NCBI GenBank assembly: GCA_051003195.1
Contig: JBPCLP010000025.1
Location: 67,616 to 131,615 of the forward strand
Reading direction: 5' to 3'
Length of the DNA stretch: 64,000 nt
Origin: Candidatus Sumerlaeaceae bacterium
GTDB lineage: Bacteria > Sumerlaeota > Sumerlaeia > Sumerlaeales > Sumerlaeaceae
A program made the position numbers and the translations under genes. Positions within the stretch are counted from its first letter, which is position 1. Each line of letters opens with the position of its first letter. The notes beneath the pieces were generated by a model that was not told the DNA's origin, searched no databases, and saw only the letters and a list, made by a program, of their open reading frames with translations. Shown one piece after another: positions 5,516-64,000 of the stretch.

Positions 5516-6241
5516 TTACGGGAATGTCTCGTTATACTTGTTTTGAATTCGATCAATAGAAGGCAAGCGGGACGCGTTAATTGGGCCCGGGGCCGAAGAA
5601 ACCCGAACGACATCTCCCCGGCTGACGGTTCCATTTGTTGGATCGTAGTCTAATCCAAAGGAGGCGTTTGCTCCCATTTGTCCGACATACCCCCCCCCGA
5701 AGAAGTTAACTTTGTCCGGCCCTGCCGACACAACCCTCCACGTCGCTCCGGAAGTCAGCCCTGCCCCACGCCAATTACCCGTAGTAGTGTCATACGCGGC
5801 GCCGTTGACAAAATCAAAGGCATTCCAGTAGTCAAAACTATCGTATTGGGTATCTAAGTCCCCAGTATTAGAAACGCCAAAACCTGACGGGCGAAAAACA
5901 TCCGGCGGAATCGACGTAATATACGCGATGGGAGTTGTCAGGCGTTTAAAGCGGCCACTTACCGCATTCTGATTCGTAATGGTGGAATTGATGACGCTTT
6001 CCCCGTTCCAAGGGCTCGCCTGCGCGGACGTCTTACCGAACTGGATAACTGTCATCGGCTTGTTCTCATCAACGGTGTAAGACTCAAGACCGGTGGCAAG
6101 AGTTCGCATGTCCGCCTTAGTTCTGGCGACTTTGGATCGCGTCTGCGCTTCCAGGAAATTTGGAACCGCAATAGCCGCAAGAATCGCGATGATTGCGACC
6201 ACAATTAAGAGCTCAATAAGCGTAAATCCTTTACGATGCAT
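5516..6241 (-). CDS. GspG-like pseudopilin (prepilin-type N-terminal cleavage/methylation domain protein)
   Basis: Short basic leader MHRKG followed by FTLIELLIVVAIIAILAAIAVPNFLEAQTRSKVARTKADMRTLATGLESY. A GGAGGA RBS lies upstream of the start on the minus strand. C-terminal YDPTNGTVSRGDV motif is shared with the 62118 paralog. Confidence 0.8.
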   Translation of the reverse strand: MHRKGFTLIELLIVVAIIAILAAIAVPNFLEAQTRSKVARTKADMRTLATGLESYTVDENKPMTVIQFGKTSAQASPWNGESVINSTITNQNAVSGRFKRLTTPIAYITSIPPDVFRPSGFGVSNTGDLDTQYDSFDYWNAFDFVNGAAYDTTTGNWRGAGLTSGATWRVVSAGPDKVNFFGGGYVGQMGANASFGLDYDPTNGTVSRGDVVRVSSAPGPINASRLPSIDRIQNKYNETFP

Positions 6242-24281: not shown

Positions 24282-24648
24282 CGCTGCCAAACTCCTCGGT
24301 ATTCTGGCAATACTGACACAAGATAACGCGCCGTTAGTCTTTGGTTCAATTTTAATCGCCAGTCCAGACCCTGCAACGCGCCGCTTCATTAAATTAAGAC
24401 TTGGAATGACCAGCCAGATGTGCAGTATTTTGCACATTAAGTGAAGAACTGACGGTCTATAGGGCCAAGAGCCCGCGGAAGGGGGTGCAAATCCCCCACG
24501 GACACGCCGCTGTAATCGGGGACGAACTCTGTAGAACCACTGCCGAAAGGCGGGAAGGACAGAGCGAGGACGAACCGAAAGTCAGAAGACGGGGTCGCCA
24601 GTTCCTCCAAATTGCCTCCCGTGCTCAGGAGGCGAAGGAGAGAATGGT

Positions 24649-25455
24649 ATGTCATCAGTCCTGTCACGCGCCAGTGGCTCGGCCCGGCATTGGGCTGCGC
24701 TTGTACTGTTGATGATTGCGGCGTATCCCGCTCAATCGCAATCGTTTCCCGATCGTGTGGCGGCATTTATGCCGGGAGTGAACAGCGGCTTCGGGCAAGC
24801 TTACTACCCCACAAACGTTCTGGGCGCGCCGCACGGAAATACAAATCCCCAGACGCCGAACTTCTCACAGCAGGATCTCTTAAGTCTCGGCACCGGAGGT
24901 GAAATCGTCCTGGAGTTTACAAGTACGGAAATCGTCAACGGTCCGGGAGACGACTTCACCGTGTTCGAAAACCCGGTCCAGCCGATCAGCAATCCTGACC
25001 AGAGCTTTGTCGATTCGGCAACAGTTTCAGTGAGTGACGACGGAACGTCATGGGTCACTTTCCCATTTCATATTGTTTCCATCAGTGCCGACAGGCTCTA
25101 TTATAAGAGCAACTACGTTGGTCTTGCAGGCGTACAGCCGACATTCAGCTCTCCCACCAATGGGATTTCCCCGTTCGATCGCGCAGTAAGCGGCGGCGAC
25201 GGCTATGACCTGACGAGCGTCGGTCTTACCCGCGCGCGTTTCATTAGAATCAAAGACACAGGAACCACGACCGTCTCCCCTACTATCGATTTGCTGGGAC
25301 ACATTGTAAACGACTACGGAAATCAGCTGGACCCGGATCCCCTTTCGCCAGGGGTTGGAATTGCCGCGGGATTCGATCTTGATGGGATCGCCGCCATCCA
25401 CACCACACCACGCACAACCGCCGTTCGGCGCGAAGACTGGGTTCTTTACGAATGA
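24649..25455 (+). CDS. secreted hypothetical protein, first gene of pseudopilin/Wzy_C/GT39 operon
   Basis: Signal peptide ...HWAALVLLMIAAYPAQSQS. The stop overlaps the start of the downstream pseudopilin gene (ATGA). No family recognised. Confidence 0.6.
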   Translation: MSSVLSRASGSARHWAALVLLMIAAYPAQSQSFPDRVAAFMPGVNSGFGQAYYPTNVLGAPHGNTNPQTPNFSQQDLLSLGTGGEIVLEFTSTEIVNGPGDDFTVFENPVQPISNPDQSFVDSATVSVSDDGTSWVTFPFHIVSISADRLYYKSNYVGLAGVQPTFSSPTNGISPFDRAVSGGDGYDLTSVGLTRARFIRIKDTGTTTVSPTIDLLGHIVNDYGNQLDPDPLSPGVGIAAGFDLDGIAAIHTTPRTTAVRREDWVLYE

Positions 25456-40767: not shown

Positions 40768-40896
40768 CCAGCAACGCTCCCGCCTTGCACAACTATAGTC
40801 TTACGCGCAGTGTAAAGCCGCAGCTCAAAATGGATCAAGTGAAATCGCCTGTCCTGCATGACAACTTGTTGTCAAGTAACGCGGCTGACAAGCGAC

Positions 40897-40985
40897 GGTC
40901 TACCATTAACTCGTAACCAGTTCTGTGTGCCGAATCGAGCTCAAGTCTGCCGGGCTGGTAAGGAACTACGGACTCGGCACACTGG
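40897..40985 (+). repeat. REP-like palindromic repeat, family 1 (copy B)
   Basis: ggtctaccattaactcgtaaccagttctGTGTGCCGAATCGAGctcaagtctgccgggctggtaaggaactacggaCTCGGCACACtgg, in the divergent intergenic region between zapB and the cupin gene. Confidence 0.75.
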
Positions 40986-41061
40986 TGCAGAATCTGTAAT
41001 GGACAACCTGCAATACCCGTGCAGACTTCAGCTTTAATCGATTTCAGAAAGGACCAGTTAC

Positions 41062-41421
41062 ATGGCCGCGATGGAAAAGAAAAATCTTTCTCAGCCCGAT
41101 GAGACCCGCACTTTTGACAAGGGGCAGTTGGAACTCGTCACGCTTGGCGGTGTGACCTTCGGTCGCATCACGCTGCAGCCCGGCTGGAAGTGGTCCACCT
41201 GCGTCAAGCCTCTCGCGAAAACGGAAAGCTGCCAGGCCCCCCATCTGCAGTATCAGATCTCCGGCCGGATGCACGTGCGCATGGACGACGGATCCGAGGA
41301 GGAATTCGGGCCGGGAGACGTTCTGAAGCTGCCCCCCGGTCACGACGCATGGGTAATTGGAAACGAGCCGGTCGTCGCAATCGACATCACGGGCATGGGC
41401 GAATACGCAAAACAAAACTGA
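41062..41421 (+). CDS. cupin-domain protein
   Basis: 119 aa. Two-motif cupin pattern (GRITLQPGWKWSTCVKP...HLQYQISGRMHVRMDDGSEEEFGPGDVLKLPPGHDAWVIGNEPVVAID). Confidence 0.7.
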   Translation: MAAMEKKNLSQPDETRTFDKGQLELVTLGGVTFGRITLQPGWKWSTCVKPLAKTESCQAPHLQYQISGRMHVRMDDGSEEEFGPGDVLKLPPGHDAWVIGNEPVVAIDITGMGEYAKQN

Positions 41422-41630
41422 CACTAACATCTCACGCGGCGTCCTTATCCCACAAGACGTCCGCCCATTGCATAAGACCGTCCGGAATTCTTAATTCAAC
41501 AGATCAGGTTTTGGCTTTTTCGTGCCCGTGCACGTGCCCTGATCTCGTGCACGTCAATTGTTGAACGACGCCTCCCCGGAATCGAGTGTCCGCGTTTTCA
41601 GAGGAAGTTCAACTTAGCCCTTACCGTAAC

Positions 41631-41694
41631 TGATCTTTTGATGAAGTCTCCATGACGTTAGCAACTTAATTAGTGACAACGTCAACAGTCCCAG
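41631..41694 (+). mobile_element. MITE/REPIN-like element family 2, truncated copy F (left flank plus partial TIR)
   Basis: tgatcttttgatgaagtctccatgacgttagcaacttaattagtgacaacgtcaacagtcccag aligns to 61893..61957 of copy D and then diverges. Confidence 0.6.
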
Positions 41695-41707
41695 ATATTT
41701 TCTTCTG

Positions 41708-43876
41708 TTACGGTTCGCGTTTCGATTCGGCCTGCAAAATCCACATATACCCAATACGCATTCCACACGGTCGCGACGATTTTAGTACGAATGGCTGAGC
41801 CGATTGCTTTACTGCTGATAACTCAGCGAGCTGAGTAATTGTCGTTTCCGCCGACTTCAGCGATATCGATGTTTCACTTTCGCCAATCATCATTGTCAGC
41901 CATCCGCCTTGGTCACCAGCCTTCATGCGCGCAAGTGCGCGCAGCTTATGGCCAACCTCCAGCCCATGCAATTTTCCGCTGACGTGCCCCGTCACGTGTC
42001 GACTTATGTCCACCACCGTCGGCGTGCTTTCCAAATCCGTCAATGCCGGCGCATCCATCACGTAGTGAAGCGTCTTGTCGCGCCAATCAACCTCGTGATC
42101 TTCCTCACTTCTCAAATCCGCAAAATCTACATGGTCAACCAACCGCCAGCCCTTCGGCAGAAACTTCGCAGGAAGCATTTCCGCCGAACGCACGAACTCA
42201 CGCGGAAATCTATACAGTTTCATGTCTGCATTGCGATCGTTCATCGGCAGGGCATCCGGAAATGTTGCCGGGTCAGCAATGAGATCGGCGGTGTAGCACG
42301 GCGACTGCCACATCGGACTGAACATCGCCGCCACATCAGGCAACTCCTCGGTCGTCAGGCAGCGCTCAATTGCCTCAAACGGCGCGAACGCACCCTCAAT
42401 TGCAGCACGCGTCAGCTCATACCCGGGCAGTTGCATGCACAGCCCGATCACGTCAAAACCGTTAATGTCGCTGAAGTACATCGGCGCGCCAGCGTCGTGG
42501 CTGATCAGCTTCTTATATGTGCCGGGCTTTTCGCGGTTCACTTTTGCTATGTAGCGCCCGATGGGAATCTGTCGCGCGGCAAGCACCTGGGAATTGCGGA
42601 TGTAGAGTTCGTGGATCTGCCTCAACGCGGGCATCGATCCTGCGACCAGCACAAGTGGTAAGAGTGCGACCGCACGTTGAAACCAGAGCTGCCCCGGCCG
42701 CTGCGACAGCCGCACTGCGGCTTTCATCAAGTTTCCCGCGCCTATTCCCGCCAAAAGAAACAGTGGCGGTACGTAGGGCTGCAGGTAACGGAATGTTCCC
42801 GTGCCAACAACGTCTCGCTGCCCTGCCATAAAACAAAATTCGACCGCGACAACAATCCATGTACACAGTATTGCCAGCCGCAATCTAATACCACACGGCC
42901 ACAGACTCAGCGCCAGCAAAACGAGTGCAACCGCGCCACTTAGCAGACCAAACGTTGCTGGACCAAAACTGCCAATCAATTCGCCCGGCAGGTTCGATAT
43001 CTTTTCCTGCCAGAAAGATCCCTTTTGCGACTGGTCCCGAAACGGGTCGCTCCAGATGCTGCGCAATTTCATGCTGTTCGGAATTGGGTCGCCGGTCATC
43101 ATCCAGTTCAGCGACAGAAACGCCGCTAGCGGAAGTACACACAATACGCCACATATCAAAGGCTGCAGAATTGTCGATGCATGTACTCGAGCCCGGTCGC
43201 GCCAGATCTGTAACGCTCCTGCTCCGCTTACGAATGCCCAGCACACCCCAACCGCAAGTATCGCCTCGGGCCGCAGCAGCGGCAGTGCAGCGCCGACTGC
43301 TGCAAAGCGGCTGTTCCATCTCGGTAGTTCACCGCGTTCAAGCAAATCCCATGTGCACCACATCAGCGCGATTACGCCTGCCGTCGCTATCCCGGTCTCC
43401 ATCCCCGAGACCGCACCGCAAACCAGGAACCCACACACGCTCCACAGCATCGCCGTGCTCGTCGCAATCAGCGCCGTCGTGTGGCGACAAAGCAGCCGCC
43501 ACAACAGATAGATCCCTGCACTCGCAGCCGCGACGTTCACGATGTGTGCAAACAGCATGATCCAGTGCTCGCGAAATCCAACTGAGTAACCGACCGTCAG
43601 AATCAGCGGATACAGAGCACTCGTCGCGCCCTTGCTATAGCCACTGTCCGGCGACCACGTATACAGCATTCCCCGCGTAAAGTTTTTCGCATACTGCGCG
43701 TGAATGTAAGCATCATCCACCAGTGCCGGCCAGATGCCCCCACCGACCCGGTAACCTGTTAATATAAACCAGATACACAGCGCAAAGAAGGTAGCAGTAG
43801 GAAGCAGCCACGCAATGCATGTTACAGTACCGTTACAAGTTTTCCGGGCAATCATCTGCATTCCAAAGAATTGCAA
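41708..43876 (-). CDS. large polytopic membrane protein, putative GT-C-fold glycosyltransferase
   Basis: 722 aa with more than 12 predicted TM helices. Conserved acidic loop LVDDAYIHAQYAKNF after the first helix. Family uncertain. Confidence 0.45.
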   Translation of the reverse strand: MQFFGMQMIARKTCNGTVTCIAWLLPTATFFALCIWFILTGYRVGGGIWPALVDDAYIHAQYAKNFTRGMLYTWSPDSGYSKGATSALYPLILTVGYSVGFREHWIMLFAHIVNVAAASAGIYLLWRLLCRHTTALIATSTAMLWSVCGFLVCGAVSGMETGIATAGVIALMWCTWDLLERGELPRWNSRFAAVGAALPLLRPEAILAVGVCWAFVSGAGALQIWRDRARVHASTILQPLICGVLCVLPLAAFLSLNWMMTGDPIPNSMKLRSIWSDPFRDQSQKGSFWQEKISNLPGELIGSFGPATFGLLSGAVALVLLALSLWPCGIRLRLAILCTWIVVAVEFCFMAGQRDVVGTGTFRYLQPYVPPLFLLAGIGAGNLMKAAVRLSQRPGQLWFQRAVALLPLVLVAGSMPALRQIHELYIRNSQVLAARQIPIGRYIAKVNREKPGTYKKLISHDAGAPMYFSDINGFDVIGLCMQLPGYELTRAAIEGAFAPFEAIERCLTTEELPDVAAMFSPMWQSPCYTADLIADPATFPDALPMNDRNADMKLYRFPREFVRSAEMLPAKFLPKGWRLVDHVDFADLRSEEDHEVDWRDKTLHYVMDAPALTDLESTPTVVDISRHVTGHVSGKLHGLEVGHKLRALARMKAGDQGGWLTMMIGESETSISLKSAETTITQLAELSAVKQSAQPFVLKSSRPCGMRIGYMWILQAESKREP

Positions 43877-43882
43877 AAAATC

Positions 43883-43913
43883 GGGACGGTTGACGTTTTC
43901 CCCAATTAATTGG
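43883..43913 (-). mobile_element. solo terminal inverted repeat of element family 2, abutting RAYT remnant
   Basis: gggacggttgacgttttccccaattaattgg matches the right TIR of copy E (ccacggttgacgtttcccccaatttttgg) and the reverse complement of the left TIR of copy D. Confidence 0.65.
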
Positions 43914-43963
43914 ATTGCATCTGCCGTTCATCTGCAGGCTGCCGTAGATCACCTATCGCACGT

Positions 43964-44215
43964 ATGGCAAGGATTGTTGTCGCGGGATGCCCGCATCACA
44001 TCACCCACCGCAGCAACCTGCGCGCCGACATCTTCCTCCACGACAACGACCGCCTGCTCTACAAGTCGCTGCTCGCACAAACCTCGCGCCCGTTCGGACT
44101 GCAGATCTGGGCCTACTGCCTTTTGACAAACCACATCCACCTCATCGCCGTCATTAATTACTCAATAGAATCAGACCCAAACTCTGCACGAATTCCCGGG
44201 AATTTGCACTCGTGA
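43964..44215 (+). pseudogene. REP-associated tyrosine transposase (RAYT, IS200/IS605 TnpA-like) N-terminal fragment, truncated
   Basis: MARIVVAGCPHHITHRSNLRADIFLHDNDRLLYKSLLAQTSRPFGLQIWAYCLLTNHIHLIAV matches the RAYT pattern (YHVTxRGNxRQxIF...AYCLMPNHxHLL, HUH motif NHIHLI). It terminates ~84 aa in, before the catalytic Tyr region. Confidence 0.7.
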
Positions 44216-56817: not shown

Positions 56818-57293
56818 GTGAAACCCCGGCGGTACCCGCGGCGATGGACATCAACCGCATCCTGGAGATTCTCCCCCACCGCTATCCGTTTCTGCTGGTG
56901 GATCGCATCCTCGAAATGCGCGAGGGGTTTGTAGTCGGCCAGAAGTGCGTCACGATGAACGAATGGTTTTTCCAGGGCCACTTCCCGCAGCAGCCGGTGA
57001 TGCCGGGAGTCCTCATCCTCGAGGCGATGGCGCAGACGGGCGCTATACTCGCACATCTGCACGAGGAAAACCGCGGCCGCCTGATTTTTCTCGCGGGTGT
57101 GGATGACGCGCGATTCCGCAAAGTCATATCGCCGGGCGATGTGCTGCGTATCGAGATGACTGAGATCCAGCGGCGCAAAAACATCGGCCGTTGCAGCGGA
57201 CGCGTGCTCGTCGACGGCAAGCTTGCGTGCGAAGCTGTGCTGACCTTCGCGGTACAGGCATCGAGCCAGGGTCGGTCTGCCGATAGTTCGTAA
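56814..57293 (+). CDS. fabZ: 3-hydroxyacyl-[ACP] dehydratase FabZ
   Basis: ILEILPHRYPFLLVDRILE...FFQGHFPQQPVMPGVLILEAMAQTGAIL hotdog motif. Probable GTG start overlaps the lpxC stop (GTGA); alternative ATG at 56844. The TAA stop lies inside the repeat copy at 57286. Confidence 0.9.
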   Translation: MSETPAVPAAMDINRILEILPHRYPFLLVDRILEMREGFVVGQKCVTMNEWFFQGHFPQQPVMPGVLILEAMAQTGAILAHLHEENRGRLIFLAGVDDARFRKVISPGDVLRIEMTEIQRRKNIGRCSGRVLVDGKLACEAVLTFAVQASSQGRSADSS

Positions 57294-57353
57294 TCAGTTC
57301 TGTGTGCCGAATCGAGGGTAAGTTTGCCCTTTGGTCTGGTAAATGAACTAAGG
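57286..57353 (+). repeat. REP-like palindromic repeat, family 1 (copy C, 3' part diverged)
   Basis: gttcgtaatcagttctGTGTGCCGAATCGAGggtaagtttgccctttggtctggtaaatgaactaagg. The 5' 40 nt are near-identical to copies A and B. It shares gccctttgg.ctggtaa with copy A. Confidence 0.65.
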
Positions 57354-61892: not shown

Positions 61893-62090
61893 GATCTTGT
61901 GGTGAAGTATTGCTTACGCTAGCAAATTAATTAGTGAAAACGTCAACCGTGGGGCTGTTGAAAAACCCTGTGTCTTTGTTCGACCCTTGCAGGGTCGTGA
62001 GGATATTACGCTCCAGATCCGCAGGTTGCACCTGCGGCTATTCATGTTCGACACCTCCGGTGTCGGTTTTTCAACACCCCCACCGTCCCC
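61893..62090 (+). mobile_element. MITE/REPIN-like element family 2, copy D (left flank arm plus ~165-nt palindromic core)
   Basis: Left TIR aaacgtcaaccgtggggctgttgaaaaacc. Internal hairpins (gaccc-ttgca-gggtc; ccgcaggt-tgca-cctgcgg; gacacc-tcc-ggtgtc). Degenerate right TIR ggtttttcaacacccccaccgtcccc. Core ~85-90% identical to 63405..63560. Confidence 0.75.
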
Positions 62091-62117
62091 GAATTAAAGA
62101 CCGACGTAGTTCGCGGT

Positions 62118-62840
62118 TTAGCGTGTGCTGCCGGATTCCGGACCAATGCCGGGTCCCAGGAAAAAGACGTCCCCAGCGCTGACGGTGCCGTTCGTAGGGT
62201 CATAGGAGGTGGCGTTCGGGCTGTCGTGACCGAGTGTGGTGGCGTTCAGGTCAGGCCCGACACTTCGCAGCGCCCACAAAACGCCCGCGCTCCGGCTGAT
62301 CCGTTCCGTCCATAGCGGCGGAGTAAGAGGAATGACAATGTTCTCATCCCGCCCATCCGGCGTCATGCGGTACGCGTAGTCAAAAGCGCACACGCTTGCC
62401 AGCTCGCCGCCCGGGCCCGTTTTGTAGTATTCCCCGAGCTGCGGGTTCCGGTAAACCGCGGTGCGGGCGAAGGTATCTTCGGGGATTGAGGAAAGATAGG
62501 CGGTTGGAGTGGTCAGAACAATAAACCGGTTAATATAGTAGGCATAATTGCGAACGGATGTCGGAACCTGCCCGCCGTATGTGGGTTGATTATCCTGAAA
62601 GTCCGGAGGGTACTTGTTATCGTCGACCCGATACGATTCAAGGGCTGTGGCAACAGTTCTCATGTCGGCTTTCACTCTCGAAACCTTGGCCCGCGTCTGC
62701 GCTTCGAGAAAGTTCGGCACTGCGATGGCAGCCAGAATGGCGATGATTGCGACGACGATCAGCAATTCGATCAGAGTGAAGCCACGATGAATCTTCCCGC
62801 CTGGATGGCACGGTACAAAACAATAGGACATAATGGTCAT
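62118..62840 (-). CDS. GspG-like pseudopilin (prepilin-type N-terminal cleavage/methylation domain protein)
   Basis: ...GGKIHRG followed by FTLIELLIVVAIIAILAAIAVPNFLEAQTRAKVSRVKADMRTVATALESY. The likely start is the ATG at 62831 (MSYCFV...), giving a 17-aa leader. C-terminal YDPTNGTVSAGDV is shared with the 5516 paralog. Confidence 0.8.
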   Translation of the reverse strand: MTIMSYCFVPCHPGGKIHRGFTLIELLIVVAIIAILAAIAVPNFLEAQTRAKVSRVKADMRTVATALESYRVDDNKYPPDFQDNQPTYGGQVPTSVRNYAYYINRFIVLTTPTAYLSSIPEDTFARTAVYRNPQLGEYYKTGPGGELASVCAFDYAYRMTPDGRDENIVIPLTPPLWTERISRSAGVLWALRSVGPDLNATTLGHDSPNATSYDPTNGTVSAGDVFFLGPGIGPESGSTR

Positions 62841-63079
62841 CTCCGACAGCTTTGCGGTTTGGGTTTGGATCTACTGGTGCAAGTTGTTGCGGGCAAATTT
62901 GCAGATGCAATCAATAACGCTACCGCGCACCAGGTCTAAGGCGTGGAATAAAGTGCAATCAGCCTCGCCGGCATGGTTGCAGGCGGCCCCGGCTCGTTGT
63001 CAAAGTCATGTCATTCACAATAGTCATCTGGAAATCTCAATCACATCACGGTAAATTCCTGCAGCTTCTTGCGCGTCGG

Positions 63080-63391
63080 CTACTTTGCTGCCGCTTTATC
63101 GAGTCCATCAAGCAGCGGGCCAAATGCATCCCCGATCTTTGTTTCCGGCGGGAGAGGCGGCGGCAGCTTCGCGAGACAACGCTGTAGCACGGCAGTTAGA
63201 TCAGGCATGGGAGCGACTTTATCAAGGTACGCGCGCATCTCCTTGTCCGCCGCGGCAAGAAAGGCGGTGGGGTTCCTTTTATCCCGGAGCCGCAGCAGAC
63301 GCGCCGCACTCGTGAGCTGATCGGAATCAACCAGCACTATCCCGGCTGGTTTCTGCGGCTCTTCGCTGCCAAGGCTTTTAGCATCCATGCG
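63080..63391 (-). CDS. hypothetical small protein
   Basis: The track ORF 63080..63493 would start inside repeat copy E. Internal Met at 63391 (MDAKSLGSEEP...) avoids the repeat. No family recognised; could be non-coding. Confidence 0.3.
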   Translation of the reverse strand, partial: RMDAKSLGSEEPQKPAGIVLVDSDQLTSAARLLRLRDKRNPTAFLAAADKEMRAYLDKVAPMPDLTAVLQRCLAKLPPPLPPETKIGDAFGPLLDGLDKAAAK

Positions 63392-63404
63392 CCATAGAAA
63401 TTCG

Positions 63405-63560
63405 GGGACGTTGGGGCTGTTGAAAAACCCTCTATCTTTGTTCGACCCGTTCAGGGTCGTGGGGATATTACGCTCAAGATCCGCAGGTTGCACCTGCGGC
63501 TATTCATGTTCGACACCTCCGGTGTCGGTTTTTCAACAGCCCCACGGTTGACGTTTCCCC
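63405..63560 (+). mobile_element. MITE/REPIN-like element family 2, copy E
   Basis: acgttggggctgttgaaaaacc...ggtttttcaacagccccacggttgacgtttcccc. Intact right TIR, left TIR with a 5-nt deletion, same three internal hairpins as copy D. Confidence 0.75.
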
Positions 63561-64000
63561 CAATTTTTGGCGCCGATATGGGTCTATTTTCCACGCTTTC
63601 GAGGAGCATTGATTCGCTGGGCGCGTGCATAGGATGGGATGGGGCGTGCGCCTCAGGAGGTGAACGGGTGTCGCGAGTGGCATGCCGCCGCCAGCATCGC
63701 CAGGTACACTGCGCGATCCTCGGGCTCAAAGATCACCGCCGCGCGATGATTGCCCCGAGACGTGATGTGATACGGCTCACCCGTCACAACAACTCTTGCA
63801 AATCGCGGGATGAGGCATTTCGGTAGCGTTCGACGTGCTCAACGCAAAAAGAAAAATTCCACGTCCTGAATTTTCAAGCGGGGACCCTTCAACGAATCCA
63901 GCCGTTGAACCAGCAGAAGTTCCGGCTATATTCAGATGACCAAAAAACCTGTCCAGCATGCCATTATATTTGGGTTTCTCGTTTTACTAGTCGTTTTTGC

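Follow-up and report, generated by a model that had tools for sequence, protein, structure and literature searches.

Insertion sequences (ISs) of the IS1182 family and the MITEs (miniature transposable elements with inverted repeats) related to them are the closest described counterparts of a 131-nt element, present as two copies (D and E), which we have analysed in a 64-kb stretch of DNA from a Candidatus Sumerlaeaceae bacterium (64,000 nt of contig JBPCLP010000025.1, positions 67,616 to 131,615, referred to here as the window). IS1182-family MITEs have already been described, as MITEPye1 of Paracoccus yeei carries 18-bp terminal inverted repeats (TIRs) and 4-bp direct repeats (PMC11578231). 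Targeting of palindromes by the family is likewise already published: the insertion sites of IS1272 are inverted repeats or stem-loops, which often lie just downstream of genes, palindromes are also the targets of other members of the family, and a proposed pathway has only the loop duplicated (PMC5678879, citing Siguier et al. for the family). Repetitive extragenic palindromes (REPs), which combine a GT(A/G)G head with a palindrome (PMC2817692), are documented as IS insertion hot spots (PMC1525189), and pairs of inverted REPs form the composites termed REPINs, which flank or match the flanks of genes for REP-associated tyrosine transposases (RAYTs; PMC3116915, PMC2817692). An earlier note, made from the letters of this DNA alone, interpreted the element as a REPIN-like MITE of a decayed RAYT. 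We conclude, with a probability of about 0.8, that it is an IS1182-family MITE, mobilised in trans and inserted twice into a pre-existing repeat of ~38 nt. It is thus ordinary selfish DNA, neither a RAYT-driven REPIN nor a structured RNA, and does not constitute a new kind of system.

The element resembles MITEPye1 in its small size, absence of an open reading frame (ORF), intergenic position, ~18-bp IS1182-like TIRs, short direct repeats, long stem-loop and presumed mobilisation in trans. It differs in having 5-bp rather than 4-bp direct repeats and in its unrelated sequence and host phylum, and the available part of PMC11578231 describes no insertion inside another repeat family, unlike the situation of D and E. 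IS1272 belongs to the same transposase family as the elements which share the TIRs of D and E but is autonomous, has 16-bp inverted repeats, replaces the stem-loop and produces no target duplication (PMC5678879), whereas D and E are 131-bp MITEs whose target is retained, duplicated over 5 bp and only weakly palindromic. The ISs that target REPs (ISPpu9/ISPpu10, ISPa11, ISPsy8 and ISRm19/22 in PMC1525189, IS1397 in PMC2817692 and PMC1525189) also select, with high specificity, one position inside a short dispersed extragenic repeat, with filled and empty repeat copies coexisting in one genome (PMC1525189). Unlike D and E, none of those named is described as a MITE or as an IS1182-family element in the available part of PMC1525189, and ISPpu9 is assigned to the IS110 family (PMC12288879).

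Both 131-nt copies are bounded by the 17-bp TIR GGGGCTGTTGAAAAACC (Table 1), which occurs four times in the window with at most three mismatches compared with 0.2 occurrences expected. As 131-nt units, D and E differ at seven positions (94.7% identity), and a repeat search of the window aligned 61950-62086 with 63412-63548 at 94% identity. The inverted ends extend over 18 nt without mismatch in copy E and over 22 nt at 91% in copy D, with a spacing of 97 nt in each. DNA folding predicts a closing TIR stem and three hairpins in both copies, with minimum free energies of -31.9 and -36.7 kcal/mol and z-scores of -5.8 and -8.0 relative to shuffled sequences for the two copies. The shared repeat, the inverted termini and the three internal hairpins reported in the earlier note are therefore all confirmed, while its overall size of 165-200 nt and its 30-35-bp TIRs give way to an element of 131 nt with 17-bp TIRs. 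The three hairpins most likely represent structure of the passenger or stabilising kind that is typical of MITEs, and any effects on neighbouring genes would be at most incidental. The element is crossed by spurious short ORFs only, with no transposase gene within it, and a protein database search with a translated ORF of the MITE returned no relatives. The pentamer ACCGT is repeated perfectly on either side of copy D, and the pair ACGTT/ACGGT flanking copy E reads as a decayed target duplication. The combination of IS1182 ends, a 5-bp duplication and absence of coding capacity identifies the D/E element as a MITE.

A dispersed repeat of ~38 nt, AATTAATTGGGGAAAACGTCAACCGTCCCCGAATT, is separate from the MITE and accounts for the outer part of what had been taken for the 30-35-bp TIR. 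At site D the left outer part is AATTAATTAGTGAAAACGTCAACCGT and the right one ACCGTCCCCGAATT; at site E the parts are swapped, the left one being AATTCGGGGACGTT and the right one ACGGTTGACGTTTCCCCCAATT. Removal of the 131-nt unit and one pentamer from either site restores AATTAATTGGGGAAAACGTCAACCGTCCCCGAATT, which aligns end to end with two further sequences in the window, termed 'copy F' and 'solo TIR' in the earlier note. The two outer halves, claimed to be mutually inverted copies, are instead two parts of one split unit. A profile built from the four copies detects exactly four places in the window (E = 2e-11 to 8e-6) and no others below 0.1. Alignment of F with the reconstructed D site continues for ~100 nt across the insertion point (about 41623-41722), with ~80% identity between F and the left flank of D. 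F thus contains no 131-nt element and runs into the right flank of D, at odds with its description as a broken-off copy, and the 'solo TIR' sequence at 43883-43913 does exist but is part of an uninterrupted 38-nt unit, not an element remnant. As the repeat is uninterrupted at both places, these sequences are unoccupied target sites and not truncated copies.

Insertion occurred after ...CAACCGT in both D and E, ACCGT being duplicated perfectly at D and at four of five positions at E. When D, E, F and the 'solo TIR' are aligned together on both strands, the D and E cores lie in the same (+) orientation, whereas the target repeat is inverted between the two sites. This mismatch indicates two independent insertions, in opposite orientations relative to the repeat, and excludes both a local duplication and co-mobilisation of the repeat with the core. 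It is scarcely credible, therefore, that D and E represent a local segmental (inverted) duplication rather than transposition, even though only 1.46 kb separates them and they flank the same pair of genes: inverted units together with non-inverted cores could not result from a single inverted duplication, similarity ends at the unit boundaries with no unique flank in common, and identical TIRs with a duplication are the transposition signature of the whole family. In the mechanism we propose, a DDE transposase of the IS1182 family would recognise the 17-bp TIRs and mobilise the element in trans, integrating it by a 5-bp staggered cut. Two independent events of this kind, in opposite orientations, would have struck the same position, ...CAACCGT^CCCC..., of AATTAATTGGGGAAAACGTCAACCGTCCCCGAATT, leaving the two further copies in the window unoccupied.

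The assignment to IS1182 derives from the same 17-bp end in other genomes. The 17-mer was scanned against contigs representing one genome per species (596 Gb), for which ~70 chance matches are expected by our arithmetic; the genome of the window is not among the matches listed. Among these matches, exact copies of GGGGCTGTTGAAAAACC form inverted pairs ~1.5 kb apart (L007, L048, L059 and others), and the elements so delimited enclose a 481-aa ORF (for example L007, 6082-7597) with DUF772, DDE_Tnp_1 and DDE_Tnp_1_6 domains. This ORF scores 348 bits against the NCBIfam model for IS1182 family transposases (NF033551, cut-off 270). A 1.8-kb version in Bacilli (L043) scores 204 bits, under the cut-off, with IS1182 still the best model. 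The end is identical letter for letter in metagenome-assembled genomes (MAGs) of Bacilli, Bacteroidales, Nitrospinota, Planctomycetota, Armatimonadota, Holophagales and Sumerlaeota. A metagenome scan with the pattern TIR-N{82,112}-GGTTTTTCAAC (28 specified bases) yielded at least 18 loci with MITEs of 127-146 nt, which share these ends and carry several unrelated cores. Pairing of TIRs over all fetched loci, allowing at most two mismatches, gave 58 non-redundant elements, full-length ISs included, and 5-bp direct repeats are perfect in 22/58 and match at four of five positions in a further 12/58, compared with 1/58 for a control pentamer offset by 7 nt. Full-length ISs with 5-bp duplications include L025 (TTGTC) and L048/L059 (CTCAA). 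A Tn3-derived MITE (TIME), suggested by a TIR starting with GGGG and by the 5-bp duplication, was also considered and rejected, as the transposase associated with the same TIR scores as IS1182.

The ends were also observed in other arrangements. In Bacilli and Bacteroidales gut MAGs the exact 17-mer (L002, L009, L028 and L094 at 39-55; L035, L043) terminates IS1182-type elements and has a partial inverted copy, GGGCTGTTG...CAACAGCCC, following it on the inner side, and several of these contigs stop 38 nt outside the 17-mer, as expected for an assembly break at a repeated IS. Four metagenomic MITEs with this TIR (L118, L123, L129 and L132) share a core containing GTCATCCTGAACGAAGTGAAGGATC. IS1182 ends are evidently combined with different internal modules.

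Sequences surrounding the duplication in the fetched loci have a typical profile, an A-rich segment and a G/C run preceding the five duplicated positions and a complementary run and a T-rich segment following them, as in AAAGGGGG-ACAGG-CCCCGTTT (L030) and CCCCCC-TTGAG-GGGGG (L015, L026 and L069). Intact copies of the palindrome that was hit occur near the IS in several 8-kb loci (L025, L088, L048 and L069); L025, in which the occupied site is CCCCCCC-TTGTC-AGGGGGG, contains three copies of CCCTACCCCCCCTTGTCAGGGGGGTA within one mismatch. A stem of at least 3 bp abuts the duplicated pentamer at 11/34 sites compared with 4.5 on average in a non-independent permutation control; the enrichment is modest and we do not claim that the loop strictly equals the duplication. 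These data suggest that the transposase may prefer short palindromes of G/C runs with A/T-rich flanks.

The target also resembles the element itself. The half-site GGGGAC(N)GT, found in the TIR flanks of L085, L054, L036, L080, L107, L070 and L122, is similar to the element tip GGGGCTGT, the flank GGAAACTAGGGAC(A/G)GT is found repeatedly in MAGs of Planctomycetota, Armatimonadota and Holophagales, and within the window the repeat contains GTCAACCGTCCCC (61938-61950, 62082-62095), which is similar to the TIR end TTCAACAGCCCC. Such tip-like flanks may reflect either targeting of sequences that mimic the element ends or a longer functional end. A GGGAC(N)GT flank as a general extension of the TIR was rejected, since non-palindromic pentamers are mostly direct repeats and empty sites exist, although an extension is possible for a few subfamilies. 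We consider it speculative and rather unlikely that this IS1182 clade is a dedicated parasite of repeats, capturing GGGG-N5-CCCC palindromes that mimic its own tips and systematically colonising REP/RAYT repeats and terminator-like hairpins. If it were, the reverse-complementary flanks described below would suggest that the target intermediate is a hairpin or cruciform and that the cut is not a plain staggered one.

Several observations weigh against an IS1182-family MITE with a preferred target. The subterminal and core sequence of the MITE is present in none of the fetched ISs, the 64-kb window holds only two copies of the 131-nt element and no IS1182 transposase, and the target duplication of copy E is imperfect (4/5). 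A Logan contig with a pilin-like gene (L117) corresponds to window positions 62054-63443 and ends inside both MITE copies; two copies with a 62-nt identical run suffice to break an assembly, so these ends are no proof of further copies. Three metagenomic MITEs have reverse-complementary instead of direct 5-nt flanks (Table 1), the paired pentamers differing only at the central base and the outer flanks forming long palindromes; a plain staggered cut would not produce such flanks. The 38-nt unit of the window folds at only -4 kcal/mol (z = 0.2 relative to shuffled sequences) and forms no stable hairpin, which gives no support to structure-based targeting in the window. Target preference there may be for sequence rather than structure, and the right half of the site, ACCGT-CCCC-GAATT, fits the general profile. 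Finally, GGGAC(A/G)GT recurs beside the TIR in several phyla and could, in some subfamilies, belong to a longer functional end instead of reflecting a target preference. An orthologous empty site was also sought in a relative, using the neighbouring FGE-family gene as an anchor, and was not found: the contig of the best relative (78% identical) ends 142 nt past the FGE gene with no downstream sequence in common.

The window contains two RAYT-like remnants (Table 1), which bear on whether the composite could be a REPIN. Over its first ~63 residues remnant 1, named 'transposase' by NCBI, matches Pfam Y1_Tnp (E = 3e-4) as well as NCBIfam REP_Tyr_transpos (E = 7e-4), each time short of the cut-off because the protein is truncated. 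Remnant 2 is newly found, being absent from the earlier note; it has no family match on its own but shares 47% identity with remnant 1 across 38 aa (pairwise E = 6e-12). Of the 38-nt units, one is situated 46 nt 5' of remnant 1 and another, at site E, ~80 nt 3' of remnant 2, and the unit orientations at both remnants agree with the layout of a RAYT flanked by two inverted REPs (PMC2817692). A profile search of the window detected no significant unit on the other flank of either remnant. The homologue search for RAYTs with flanks returned the query only, and a PDB sequence search gave no Y1 match.

REPINs are similar to the composite in that short extragenic repeats occur near Y1-transposase genes and together form a hairpin (PMC3116915, PMC2817692), and the idea that the whole 165-200-nt composite consists of two inverted REPs and a spacer, mobilised by a since-decayed RAYT, draws on the long hairpin into which the composite folds, on the two remnants and on their adjoining, suitably oriented units. 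It is nevertheless very unlikely. The arms of a REPIN are two REPs with GT(A/G)G heads, whereas here they are unequal halves of one unit which is intact at 41658-41702 and 43873-43917. The 38-nt unit lacks the GT(A/G)G head that PMC2817692 gives as a criterion, and its fold is no more stable than that of shuffled sequence. D and E differ in how the core is oriented with respect to the unit, and the RAYT matches come from short remnants and lie under curated cut-offs. The mobile core has DDE-type TIRs, identical across phyla to those of IS1182 elements, and 5-bp target duplications. Target-site duplication is not expected of Y1/HUH transposases. The REPIN model is thus largely refuted for the 131-nt core: the earlier classification as a MITE stands, and its mobilisation as a REPIN by a RAYT does not, given the IS1182 TIR, the 5-bp duplication, the split arms and the orientation.

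Any RAYT connection may concern the 38-nt target repeat only. We regard it as a tentative possibility, somewhat short of an even chance, that this unit by itself is a REP belonging to a RAYT system that has decayed or lies elsewhere in the genome, and that the IS1182 MITE is its secondary parasite, a reading that is compatible with the IS1182-MITE explanation and would also say what the target is. RAYT-like remnants adjoin two of the four units in consistent relative orientation, the same IS1182 clade is found inside REP-like palindromes of other genomes, and REPs are documented IS hot spots (PMC1525189). On the other hand, the unit has only a weak palindrome and no GT(A/G)G head, just four copies exist in the window, neither remnant has a significant unit on its second flank, and no homologous RAYT with flanks was recovered by the homologue search.

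The strong folding of D and E (z = -5.8 to -8.0) raises the further alternative, also mentioned in the earlier note, that the core of 131 nt is a non-coding RNA with a defined structure, or a regulatory element acting in cis, and was duplicated for its function. Six of the seven differences between D and E fall at unpaired positions (P = 0.03, from two copies), and hairpin 3, together with a T-run located in the right TIR, gives a terminator-like score for the + strand; this substitution pattern and hairpin are weak evidence for something beyond the self-complementarity typical of MITEs. An Rfam 15 scan over the element gave no match, however, whether gathering thresholds were applied or E was allowed to reach 10, and ARAGORN detected no tRNA or tmRNA. 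Transposon TIRs with target duplications form the ends, the contexts differ, one copy lying 3' of a convergent gene pair and the other 5' of a small ORF, and sibling MITEs with the same TIRs have unrelated cores. A functional RNA is therefore highly improbable and the suggestion found no support in Rfam.

With an IS1182-family MITE as the preferred explanation, the apparent 165-200-nt REPIN would be two nested elements with different mobilising enzymes, and copy counts based on the composite, calls of 'solo TIR' and inferences about RAYTs drawn from it would be wrong. The IS1182 family is poorly characterised, and the same-TIR elements add dozens of metagenomic copies with 5-bp duplications that appear to favour short palindromic repeats. 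Palindrome targeting, experimentally shown only for IS1272 in staphylococci, would thereby be extended to environmental phyla and to MITEs.

Table 1. Positions of the MITE copies, target repeats, RAYT-like remnants and reverse-complementary flanks (window coordinates unless a metagenomic locus is named)
Feature	Position	Strand	Description
MITE copy D	61951..62081		131 nt; left TIR 61951-61967, perfect; right TIR 62065-62081, 1 mismatch
Copy D internal hairpins	61981-61997, 62019-62037, 62049-62065		
Copy D left target-site duplication	61946..61950		ACCGT
Copy D right target-site duplication	62082..62086		ACCGT
MITE copy E	63413..63543		131 nt; TIRs 63413-63429 and 63527-63543, both perfect
Copy E internal hairpins	63443-63459, 63481-63499, 63511-63527		
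Copy E left flanking pentamer	63408..63412		ACGTT
Copy E right flanking pentamer	63544..63548		ACGGT; same as left pentamer at 4/5 positions
Target repeat, site D, left part	61919..61950	+	AATTAATTAGTGAAAACGTCAACCGT; continues at 62087-62098; nhmmer E = 3e-7
Target repeat, site D, right part	62087..62098	+	CCCCGAATTAAA
Target repeat, site E, larger part	63544..63575	-	minus strand AAAAATTGGGGGAAACGTCAACCGT; nhmmer E = 8e-6
Target repeat, site E, smaller part	63395..63412	-	minus strand AACGTCCCCGAATTTCTA
Uninterrupted, empty target repeat ('copy F')	41658..41702	+	nhmmer E = 2e-10
Uninterrupted, empty target repeat ('solo TIR')	43873..43917	-	nhmmer E = 2e-11
RAYT-like remnant 1	43964..44215	+	83 aa, ~63 N-terminal residues homologous; context, not part of the MITE
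RAYT-like remnant 2	63656..63820	-	N-terminal fragment of ~45 aa, ...ARVVVTGEPYHITSRGNHRAAVIFEPEDRAVYLAMLAA...; right of MITE copy E
MITE with reverse-complementary flanks, L119	10058-10193		ACAGT/ACTGT
MITE with reverse-complementary flanks, L122	7824-7963		ACGGT/ACCGT
MITE with reverse-complementary flanks, L128	6418-6563		GCAGC/GCTGC

Copy E covers the GTG start (63493) of a 137-aa ORF at 63080-63493, and an in-frame ATG at 63388 would give a 102-aa product with the N-terminus MDAKSLG. The earlier suggestion that the annotated start is spurious is therefore reasonable, and our results support trimming it. A protein lookup found neither the 137-aa nor the 102-aa version on record, and the protein has no family match.

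Other features were observed in the window. An unrelated two-copy intergenic repeat (40891-40975 and 57268-57345) is ~80% identical over ~75 nt and includes a near-perfect 27-nt block, TCGTAAyCAGTTCTGTGTGCCGAATCGAG, with no Rfam match at 40800-41100. A cobalamin riboswitch (RF00174, 79 bits, E = 9e-18) is located at 24436-24613 on the + strand, upstream of ORFs starting at 24649. Positions 6059-6229 and 62613-62783 are 72% identical at the DNA level over 171 nt and lie in minus-strand genes at 5516-6241 and 62118-62840, the latter encoding a prepilin-type N-terminal methylation domain with GspG/PilA-like matches, and the two genes are probably paralogous pseudopilins.

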